From IMG/VR virus record IMGVR_UViG_3300037234_000640: DNA of 10,280 bases. One strand, written 5' to 3'. Within the stretch, counting starts at the first letter, position 1. Each line of letters starts with the position of its first letter. The notes under the pieces are model-generated. The model saw only the letters and a program-made list of their open reading frames with translations. It ran no database searches and was not told the origin of the DNA. The translations under genes were made by a program, and so were the position numbers. This document shows positions 822 to 2,060 of this stretch, piece after piece. This DNA comes from a virus.

Positions 822-2060
822 TTAATCTAATCCATTTACCAAATCTACCATTGCCTTAAATCCCAATGGTGCTAATGGATCTGTTTGACCATTTGAAGAA
901 CCACCAGCTATGAATGTCGGTACAGGGCGTTTAGCCCATGCCTCAGCCATGCCGATTTTAGTATCCCTTTCTATCTCTGCTCGTTTTAAAGGTGTTAAAC
1001 CAGCGTCTACAAGCTTCTTAGCTGCATATGCCCTAGCTTCACCTTCCCTTTTAATTTTAAGAGCAAATTGTTCCGCTTCTTCGGCTTTTAATGTCATAAC
1101 ATCCCTAGCTTTTTCTGCTTGTGTTACCGCCGTAATTTTTTCAACTTCTTCATCGGCTCTTGCTTTTGCAATTCTAGCATCACCTTCATGTTTCTCTTTA
1201 ATTGCATTTTGTTTTGCGGTTTCAGATTTTGCTTTAGCAACTACCTGTTCCTGTTCAGCCCTTTTCTTGAGCTGTATGTTTGTAGTAGTCAATGTATCAA
1301 AGTTAAAGTTTTTAATAACTAAATCAGTAATTATTATACCATGAGTTTTAAGAGCAGAAATTCTTTTAATAATAGGTTTACCATCTTTATAACGCAATTT
1401 TGTTACTTGTTCTCTTATGATTTTAACTTTTTTATGTGACTTACCTGTTGTTTCATCAATAAATTCATCTTCTATTTCTTCACGTTCTTGAGTTTCAGTT
1501 TCAGTTTCAAATAAACCTTGTTCTAGTTGATCTAAAACTAATGTAGTGAATTCATCTCTACGTGTTATAAAAGCTTCTTCAGGTCTAAACATTGGTCCAG
1601 TTTGTTTTAACGCACCCGCAATTGCATTTCTTACAAGTTCCATTTTAACAGCTTTATCAGAACCATATGTTCTATGGACTTTCAAACGTAATGAATCTCC
1701 ACTTGGTAATATATACTTACATATACCAGATACTTCAGCCGTACTATTTCCCATGAATGTTGCGTTTAATGGTTTAGATTCCTCACCCATTCCACCATCT
1801 AAACGTTCTTCTGAAAAATAAAACATATGCGCTCTTTTATATGTTTTAACTTTACCAAATTTAAAATAAATGCCTGGTTCATCAATAACATCCATTGTGC
1901 CCCAATAATGTAATTGCTTTACATGATATTCTCTGAAGTCTACGTTACCCCATAATGAATTCCATATTAAAGTAATTAAAATTATTCCAGCTACCAATGC
2001 ACCCAAGAATAATTTTAATTTAATTCCAGACGTTTTTTGTCTTTGTTCCTGTTTGTCCAT
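822..2060 (-). CDS. Flotillin-like / SPFH (band-7) family membrane scaffold protein. Start probably at the internal ATG 2058-2060 ('MDKQEQ...'), not at the upstream ATG 2112-2114.
   Basis: 'AGGAG'+5 nt+ATG lies at 2058-2070 (revcomp 'aggagaaaaaatg'); the longer ORF start at 2114 has no SD. A single N-terminal hydrophobic segment 'LKLFLGALVAGIILITLIW' follows. The middle segment has an SPFH-like terminal helix 'AVKMELVRNAIAGALKQTGPMFRPEEAFITRRDEFTTLVLDQLEQG'. A long Ala/Glu/Lys-rich coiled-coil follows ('KKRAEQEQVVAKAKSETAKQNAIKEKHEGDARIAKARADEEVEKITAVTQAEKARDVMTLKAEEAEQFALKIKREGEARAYAAKK'), like the EA-repeat flotillin domain of bacterial FloT/YqiK. The C-terminal 'FIAGGSS' tail resembles the FloT C-terminus. 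Assigned by eye, not by HMM. Confidence 0.6.
   Translation of the reverse strand: MDKQEQRQKTSGIKLKLFLGALVAGIILITLIWNSLWGNVDFREYHVKQLHYWGTMDVIDEPGIYFKFGKVKTYKRAHMFYFSEERLDGGMGEESKPLNATFMGNSTAEVSGICKYILPSGDSLRLKVHRTYGSDKAVKMELVRNAIAGALKQTGPMFRPEEAFITRRDEFTTLVLDQLEQGLFETETETQEREEIEDEFIDETTGKSHKKVKIIREQVTKLRYKDGKPIIKRISALKTHGIIITDLVIKNFNFDTLTTTNIQLKKRAEQEQVVAKAKSETAKQNAIKEKHEGDARIAKARADEEVEKITAVTQAEKARDVMTLKAEEAEQFALKIKREGEARAYAAKKLVDAGLTPLKRAEIERDTKIGMAEAWAKRPVPTFIAGGSSNGQTDPLAPLGFKAMVDLVNGLD

Follow-up and report, generated by a model that had tools for sequence, protein, structure and literature searches.

A phage SPFH protein closer to HflC and prohibitin than to flotillin, and a membrane-anchored dome as its probable form

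The stretch analysed is a complete metagenome contig of the Joint Genome Institute (JGI), 10,280 bp long and held as the virus record IMGVR_UViG_3300037234_000640; it is referred to below as the window. Its G+C content is 29.5% and, except for the first, all sizeable open reading frames (ORFs) lie on the minus strand, with seven tRNA genes scattered between them. The last gene of this long leftward string is the subject of the present analysis. It encodes a 412-aa protein with an SPFH (Band 7) domain and ends 22 nt before a hairpin (Table 1). The protein belongs to a known, annotated phage family and appears to lie closer to the HflC/prohibitin group than to flotillin.

Full-length homologues of the protein reach 61-65% identity and the family contains 449 clusters at E <= 1e-30, and because of this the gene is judged genuine rather than a chance ORF. 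A word-indexed search returned 24 homologues, the closest of them being those at 61-65% identity; some lie on contigs of 190 kb and 209 kb, and one was found in a genome bin labelled Woesearchaeota. Pfam Band_7 (PF01145) scored 21.5 bits against the query alone (E = 2.7e-4; gathering score 23.6), and was matched by 103 of 118 family members with a best value of 3.4e-17; several close homologues also have a precomputed PF01145 match. Membership of the SPFH/Band 7 superfamily, which had been proposed in a preliminary description made from the letters of the window, is confirmed by these profile matches. An exhaustive profile search over 1.84 billion cluster representatives (clusters at 50% identity) gave 449 matches at E <= 1e-30, 908 at E <= 1e-10 and 1287 at E <= 1e-3. 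Since only 1287 representatives match at E <= 1e-3, the family is, by this search, a distinct clade of about 400-aa proteins and not the generic cellular HflK/C.

The longest form of the ORF spans 822..2114 on the minus strand (430 aa), an internal ATG at 2060 gives the 412-aa form, and the JGI call is a 429-aa form starting from ATG-2111. The Shine-Dalgarno motif AGGAG sits 5 nt 5' of ATG-2060, whereas ATG-2114 and ATG-2111 have only a GGG abutting the codon. Motifs of the GGA/AGG type are present 6-9 nt upstream in most other genes of the window, and therefore such ribosome-binding sites are used here. The AAAGGAGAAAAA-ATG context of ATG-2060 is kept in the orthologues at L001 and L009 (related loci carry L numbers), which share AAAGGAGAAAA(A/G)-ATG; the apparent conservation upstream of ATG-2060 arises because this context translates in frame as K-G-E-K. 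Neither of these orthologues has a plausible earlier start in its upstream frame, that of L001 containing none at all while it stays open, and the closest homologues start 3-8 residues before the transmembrane (TM) segment, without the extension. The extension is most likely 5' untranslated region rather than coding, and the JGI form probably carries 17 residues too many. To the extent that sequence can settle the matter, the true start is ATG-2060, the one that the preliminary description had favoured for its Shine-Dalgarno motif. The same description held that the choice of start matters for membrane topology, which is not borne out, as both forms have a net-positive hydrophilic tail followed by the same single TM segment.

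The SPFH and sigma-factor genes converge on a gap of 75 nt, and the hairpin lies within it. Its fold on the minus strand has an energy of -16.9 kcal/mol (z-score -4.1 against shuffles) and is followed by a U-run; for the plus strand the energy is -13.7 kcal/mol (z-score -2.8). Because it folds on both strands, with the U-run on the minus strand, the hairpin is a bidirectional intrinsic terminator; a terminator adjoining the gene had been described before, and it is real. A simple terminator scanner run over 600-2700 returned nothing, reading the loop as too long, and it was direct folding that revealed the hairpin.

The structure of the protein was modelled with AlphaFold2 from 23 sequences, giving a mean predicted local distance difference test score (pLDDT) of 80.5. 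The single N-terminal TM segment, the long helix rich in Ala, Glu and Lys and the FIAGGSS motif that had been read from the letters were all found. The Kyte-Doolittle 19-mer maximum falls on the TM segment, no other segment rises above 1.0, and the hydrophobic segment is present in all 23 aligned members. The alpha/beta fold of SPFH domains was recovered, with a long acidic/basic beta-hairpin insert predicted at residues 186-222; the insert in SPFH2 aligns with HflC residues 167-265. Ala makes up 20% of the wall helix, Glu 14% and Lys 15%. A classical heptad coiled coil was rejected for this helix, the hydrophobic occupancy of its a/d positions being 0.48 against a background of 0.38; other SPFH wall helices are likewise without a strong heptad pattern (PMC11260169). 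A low-confidence conserved segment, KRPVPTFIAGGSS..., is placed by the model between the cap helix and a predicted C-terminal helix (residues 397-411). In it, P381 is invariant in A2 and A3 and present in at least 90% of the 118 sequences, and G386 is nearly invariant in A2. The PxxFIAGG part of the segment, with a pLDDT below 50 in the monomer model, is a candidate for the apical beta-strand of a cage cap. Solved SPFH cages follow a plan of SPFH1, SPFH2, wall helix, cap helix, beta-strand barrel and C-terminal domain (PMC11260169), and the modelled domain order of the phage protein is that of every solved cage.

The 14-aa tail before the TM segment is net-positive. Among close members the N-flank is net-positive in 20 of 21, some having 23-35 residues with a net charge of +4 or +5, and the two most distant matches show the opposite pattern. 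Since the N-flank is net-positive, the positive-inside rule predicts that the N-terminus is in the cytoplasm and the bulk of the protein outside the membrane (type II, HflC-type). This N-in orientation is that of HflK/C; QmcA and FloT have the opposite one. A lipoprotein anchor was rejected, there being no Cys in the first 30 residues.

Searching the family profile against PDB sequences gave HflC at 8.5e-8, then prohibitin at 6e-4, and a profile of the 118 sequences gave the same order; no flotillin appeared at E <= 0.01 in these searches. Foldseek likewise placed HflC first (3.2e-9), with flotillin 28th (2.3e-5). Structure comparison gave values of 14.0 for prohibitin-1, 13.2 for erlin-2, 12.6 for HflC, 12.2 for HflK, 11.8 for flotillin-1, 11.1 for stomatin and 10.0 for QmcA. 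The preliminary description had likened the protein to the bacterial flotillins FloT/YqiK. As a flotillin of this type it would have its SPFH domain on the cytoplasmic side and set up functional membrane microdomains in which the phage replicates or is assembled. The flotillin label fails on every feature tested. Neither the query nor any of the 118 family members matches the Pfam flotillin domain, the nearest neighbours in sequence and in structure are others, the positive N-flank predicts the reverse orientation, and the 412 aa of the query compare with roughly 500-550 aa for FloT/YqiK. The wall helix, 97 aa long in a superfamily where the range is 44-189 aa, falls well short of the 186 aa of flotillin (PMC11260169). 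We regard a flotillin as very unlikely. A pairing of the stomatin/QmcA-NfeD type was also rejected, with no adjacent NfeD partner by Pfam; no NfeD or related Pfam family was found among the window neighbours at E <= 0.01. The gene is single-copy, occurring at one place in each of 29 matching phage records and as one SPFH ORF per locus, and no HflK-like partner gene was found in the window, the related loci or these 29 records. Taken together, the protein appears to resemble the HflC/prohibitin group most, more closely than flotillin, and the likeness would extend to function.

A related-locus search, made with a 15-sequence alignment, found one IMG/VR relative and six metagenome loci. In the closest relatives (L001/L002, L007 and L009) the order is SLOG-like gene, w155, in some cases w113, w158, SPFH gene and sigma factor, with w158 directly upstream of the SPFH orthologue in all of them. 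The sigma-factor gene is convergent with the SPFH gene in the window, L001, L002 and L007. The position of the gene and its SLOG, w155, w158 and sigma neighbours are kept across phage contigs that have diverged to 45-65% identity. These closest relatives lack two genes of the window, the MVP-like one and that for the 281-aa membrane protein.

A second subclade, at 44-47% identity, carries a same-strand gene downstream of the SPFH orthologue for an FtsH-like AAA+/Peptidase_M41 protein of 635-641 aa, with the motifs GMTGVGKT (Walker A) and HEAGH. This neighbourhood was found in four distinct related contigs (L003/L004, L016, L017 and L015), the two genes being 0.1-1.1 kb apart. Two of the three small genes that intervene in L003/L004 and L016 encode lipobox or pilin-like membrane proteins. 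No full-length counterpart of the protease was found by tblastn in 50,697 deposited phage records; the matches were partial, confined to the M41 domain and mostly in records resembling host FtsH. Because SPFH cages recur with membrane proteases, the linkage between the SPFH gene and the protease gene is suggestive; it does not show that the SPFH protein regulates a protease.

As for the other neighbours, w158 was tied to crAss001 gp87 by jackhmmer and so to the N4 gp49/Sf6 gp66 family; queried alone, it had no Pfam, PHROG or PADLOC match. The 281-aa protein also had no match in these three collections, and no counterpart in any related locus. Both SLOG-type proteins are kept in related phage contigs. 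The 244-aa protein combines an N-terminal zinc-finger-like motif with a C-terminal domain like phage endonuclease I and Holliday-junction resolvases. The sigma-factor gene is probably truncated at its 5' end by the contig edge, because its frame runs open to that edge. PADLOC, run on the SPFH protein and five neighbours, returned nothing, and hence nothing that would point to a defence or anti-defence system.

The whole window had no megablast match among the 50,697 phage records. Its phage origin is backed by the seven tRNA genes, four of which are grouped at the right contig end, by PHROG matches of the neighbouring genes, by the IMG/VR relative, and by synteny with the 190-kb and 209-kb contigs, which bear rIIB; a more distant homologue lies on a 94-kb contig with DNA polymerase B, DnaB and holin genes. 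It could be argued that the gene is a moron, a passenger copied from a host HflC/band-7 gene and without any role specific to the phage, or even that the contig is bacterial: the JGI automatic name for the protein is 'regulator of protease activity HflC', one homologue sits in the Woesearchaeota-labelled bin, and the term moron has been applied to SPFH genes in other phages (PMC10269572). However, the family is a distinct clade by the exhaustive search, the gene keeps its position and its neighbours in diverged phage contigs, family members occur in crAss001 relatives, Vibrio phages and a 462-kb phage, and the window itself carries tRNA genes and phage-type genes. We consider this explanation extremely unlikely.

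A further gene of the window encodes a major-vault-protein (MVP) homologue. Its homologues number more than 4,500. Bacterial MVP-like proteins, such as those from Microscilla and Polyangiaceae, share 43-47% identity with it along the full length, and ORFs of the 462-kb and 735-kb huge phages LR756500/1/3 share 38%; of these phages, LR756500 also encodes an SPFH homologue. Since the MVP shoulder has an SPFH fold, the contig encodes two SPFH-fold proteins. Viral MVPs have been reported in a preprint (10.1101/2023.11.10.566534). Genes with a TROVE (Ro60-like) domain lie 4-10 kb from the SPFH gene in crAss001 (gp96) and in the 209-kb contig L003; the window contains none. TROVE domains are found also in the vault component TEP1.

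Table 1. Positions of the features discussed, in the window unless a related locus is named
Feature	Position	Strand	Basis or remark
SPFH protein coding sequence, 412 aa, stop codon included	822..2060	minus	phrog_11908 1.1e-36; full-length homologues
In-frame upstream extension	2061..2114	minus	holds Shine-Dalgarno AGGAG at 2066-2070
Terminator hairpin, 15 bp	about 764-799	both	RNA folds; flanked by U/A runs
TM anchor, single, N-terminal	1950..2018 (residues 15-37)	minus	hydropathy maximum 2.37; AlphaFold2 helix 11-36
SPFH1 and SPFH2 domains	1296..1949 (residues 38-255)	minus	two beta-rich subdomains in AlphaFold2 model
Wall helix and cap helix	933..1295 (residues 256-352, 97 aa, and 357-376)	minus	AlphaFold2 helices
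Conserved motif P-x-P-T-F-I-A-G-G-S-S	894..920 (residues 381-389)	minus	FIAGGSS = 383-389
Sigma-70-family factor	6-746	plus	Sigma70_r2 1e-11; phrog_351 1.1e-39
w158, soluble 158-aa protein, conserved upstream neighbour of SPFH gene	2160..2636	minus	N4 gp49/Sf6 gp66 family
281-aa protein	2646-3491	minus	two adjacent hydrophobic segments mid-protein
SLOG-type protein 1	3832-4194	minus	Pfam YAcAr (YspA-related SLOG) 4.1e-15; phrog_289
Major-vault-protein homologue, 861 aa	4930-7515	minus	Pfam MVP_shoulder 7.8e-23; Vault_3 4.9e-6
SLOG-type protein 2	7895-8341	minus	phrog_289
244-aa protein	8473-9207	minus	Phage_endo_I 1.6e-7; phrog_15137 1.5e-16
tRNA genes, n = 7 (Gln, Trp, Phe, Tyr, Gly, Asp, His)	4839-4913, 7604-7678, 8395-8469, 9498-10233	minus	among small ORFs
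AAA+/M41 gene, L017	7310-9235		directly 3' of SPFH orthologue, 90 nt
AAA+/M41 gene, L003 (/L004)	12274-14181		three small genes between SPFH orthologue and protease
AAA+/M41 gene, L016	4433-6340		three small genes between SPFH orthologue and protease
AAA+/M41 gene, L015	1785-2060		about 0.9 kb downstream of SPFH orthologue
TROVE-domain gene, L008 (crAss001)	2278-3696
TROVE-domain gene, L003	20995-21242

The view that such genes are uncommon in phages, put forward in the preliminary description for flotillins, did not survive comparison with what is on record. Homologues of the family are annotated 'SPFH-domain/band7-family protein' in crAss001 (gp91) and its relatives, and occur unannotated in Vibrio phages and the 462-kb phage. 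SPFH genes were listed in 2006 in the T4-like phages 44RR, Aeh1 and RB43 (PMC1524935), and others have been described in a Vi01-like phage (PMC10892097), in a Burkholderia phage (PMC10269572) and in an N4-like phage, whose authors write that it is not clear why the gene is there (PMC13239085). BFVD yielded 22 clusters of viral SPFH structures at E <= 0.001, with phages and giant viruses both represented.

On the reading that we favour, and hold to be probable, the protein is an HflC/prohibitin-type phage SPFH scaffold that forms a membrane-anchored dome, with control of membrane proteolysis or quality control as its most likely use. The gene would be transcribed as part of a leftward string of early/middle type, translated from ATG-2060, and its transcript would end at the terminator hairpin. 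Many copies of the protein would stand side by side and close into a dome held by their TM segments. As there is one SPFH copy per phage genome, this dome is probably a homo-oligomer. By the positive-inside rule it would stand on the outer, periplasmic face of the host cytoplasmic membrane, with the N-termini in the cytoplasm as in HflK/C, and would fence off a patch of that membrane. Less certainly, the fenced patch would most likely control membrane proteolysis or quality control during infection; candidate routes are the caging of host FtsH, or the shielding of phage membrane proteins from FtsH. The TM-anchored dome is well supported by homology, and the part concerning proteolysis is inferred.

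Several observations weigh against this picture. Cage formation is argued from homology and the topology from the positive-inside rule. The protein is only some 15-17% identical to HflC, and with the NCBIfam HflC models it reaches 12.6 and 11.3 bits where the cut-offs are 427 and 134.4; because these curated models failed and there is no HflK-type partner, the protein is not filed as an HflC orthologue. The relatives' AAA+/M41 protease lacks a TM segment, is thus soluble, and therefore cannot be caged in the way that HflK/C cages FtsH. It is also absent from the window, from the closest relatives L001, L002, L007 and L009, and from the examined stretches of crAss001, L005 and L006. The literature on phage SPFH proteins was found to consist of annotation and speculation, and no functional experiment was found in it.

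The protein could instead be read as an envelope factor, with no protease involved: a periplasmic SPFH lattice might act in superinfection exclusion, blocking DNA entry by later phages, or might keep the inner membrane intact until programmed lysis. The predicted periplasmic orientation is consistent with this, as is the location of the gene among early/middle-type genes, outside a virion module. In the operons of relatives, the SPFH gene is separated from the next large gene by lipoproteins and a pilin-like protein, crAss001 gp91 is two genes from a peptidoglycan hydrolase, and the query has a weak match to phrog_200, annotated 'lipoprotein'. For the SPFH gene of another phage, a role in adsorption or DNA entry has been guessed (PMC13239085). 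This support is purely circumstantial, however: PADLOC gave no match, and the recurrent AAA+/M41 neighbour is left unexplained. We know of no exclusion protein with an SPFH fold. An exclusion or envelope-stabilising factor is thus conceivable but doubtful, and the membrane-anchored dome concerned with proteolysis or quality control is preferred.

An extended version of the dome model was also considered, in which large phages would build SPFH compartments with their own soluble AAA+/M41 protease and the present phage would add a homologue of the vault shell. We consider this unlikely as it stands, but if true it would give viruses an equivalent of the pairings HflK/C-FtsH and prohibitin-m-AAA.

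For the window itself the gains are modest: a start corrected to give 412 aa instead of 429 or 430, and the label HflC/prohibitin-like SPFH instead of flotillin. The more interesting leads lie beside the SPFH gene, in the pairing with an AAA+/M41 protease in relatives and in the vault-protein homologue on the contig. It is only lately that structural work has led to an understanding of SPFH cages (HflK/C, prohibitin, erlin, flotillin and stomatin) as domes that delimit membrane. The use that phages make of their own copies is approachable by experiment, given a family of 449 or more clusters at 50% identity and a cultivable representative in crAss001 gp91, and the AAA+/M41 neighbourhood of the relatives provides a concrete, testable hypothesis.

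Among known systems, E. coli HflC, which with HflK forms the FtsH-modulating SPFH cage (PDB 7VHP/7WI3), is the best match both in sequence and by Foldseek. The two proteins share a single N-terminal TM segment, a short positive N-tail, SPFH1/2, a wall helix and a cap helix, and in some phage relatives there is also an M41 protease as neighbour, though the phage protease has no membrane or periplasmic part. HflC differs in its low identity and in having an HflK partner, none being found here; the wall helix of the phage protein is 97 aa by AlphaFold2. The cages of prohibitin 1/2 and erlin 1/2 are hetero-oligomers of eukaryotic organelles, with marginal sequence similarity to the phage protein (E 6e-4 to 0.01). 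Flotillin-1/2 and bacterial FloT/YqiK have in common with it the SPFH fold and a charged, Ala/Glu-rich wall helix, but that helix is twice as long in flotillin, the phage protein lacks the flotillin domain and is anchored by a TM helix where flotillins use a hydrophobic or lipidated surface, and the predicted orientation is opposite.

Within phages, the SPFH lipoproteins of PHROG 200, from T4-like, Vi01-like and N4-like phages (PMC1524935, PMC10892097, PMC13239085), are phage-encoded SPFH proteins that probably also face the periplasm. The match of the query to them is partial (3.5e-9, residues 236-326), covering only the junction of SPFH2 and wall helix; they are anchored by a lipobox, whereas the query has a TM helix, and they form a separate PHROG. 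By contrast, crAss001 gp91 belongs to the same family (PHROG 11908) and the same length class, and aligns over 96% of the query with 26.8% identity (E 4e-29). It too is single-copy, lies in the replication/early region and has a gene of the N4-gp49/Sf6-gp66 family nearby. The lineages differ in that crAss001 has a genome of about 100 kb, whereas the relatives of the window are contigs of 190-209 kb with rIIB and sigma factors.

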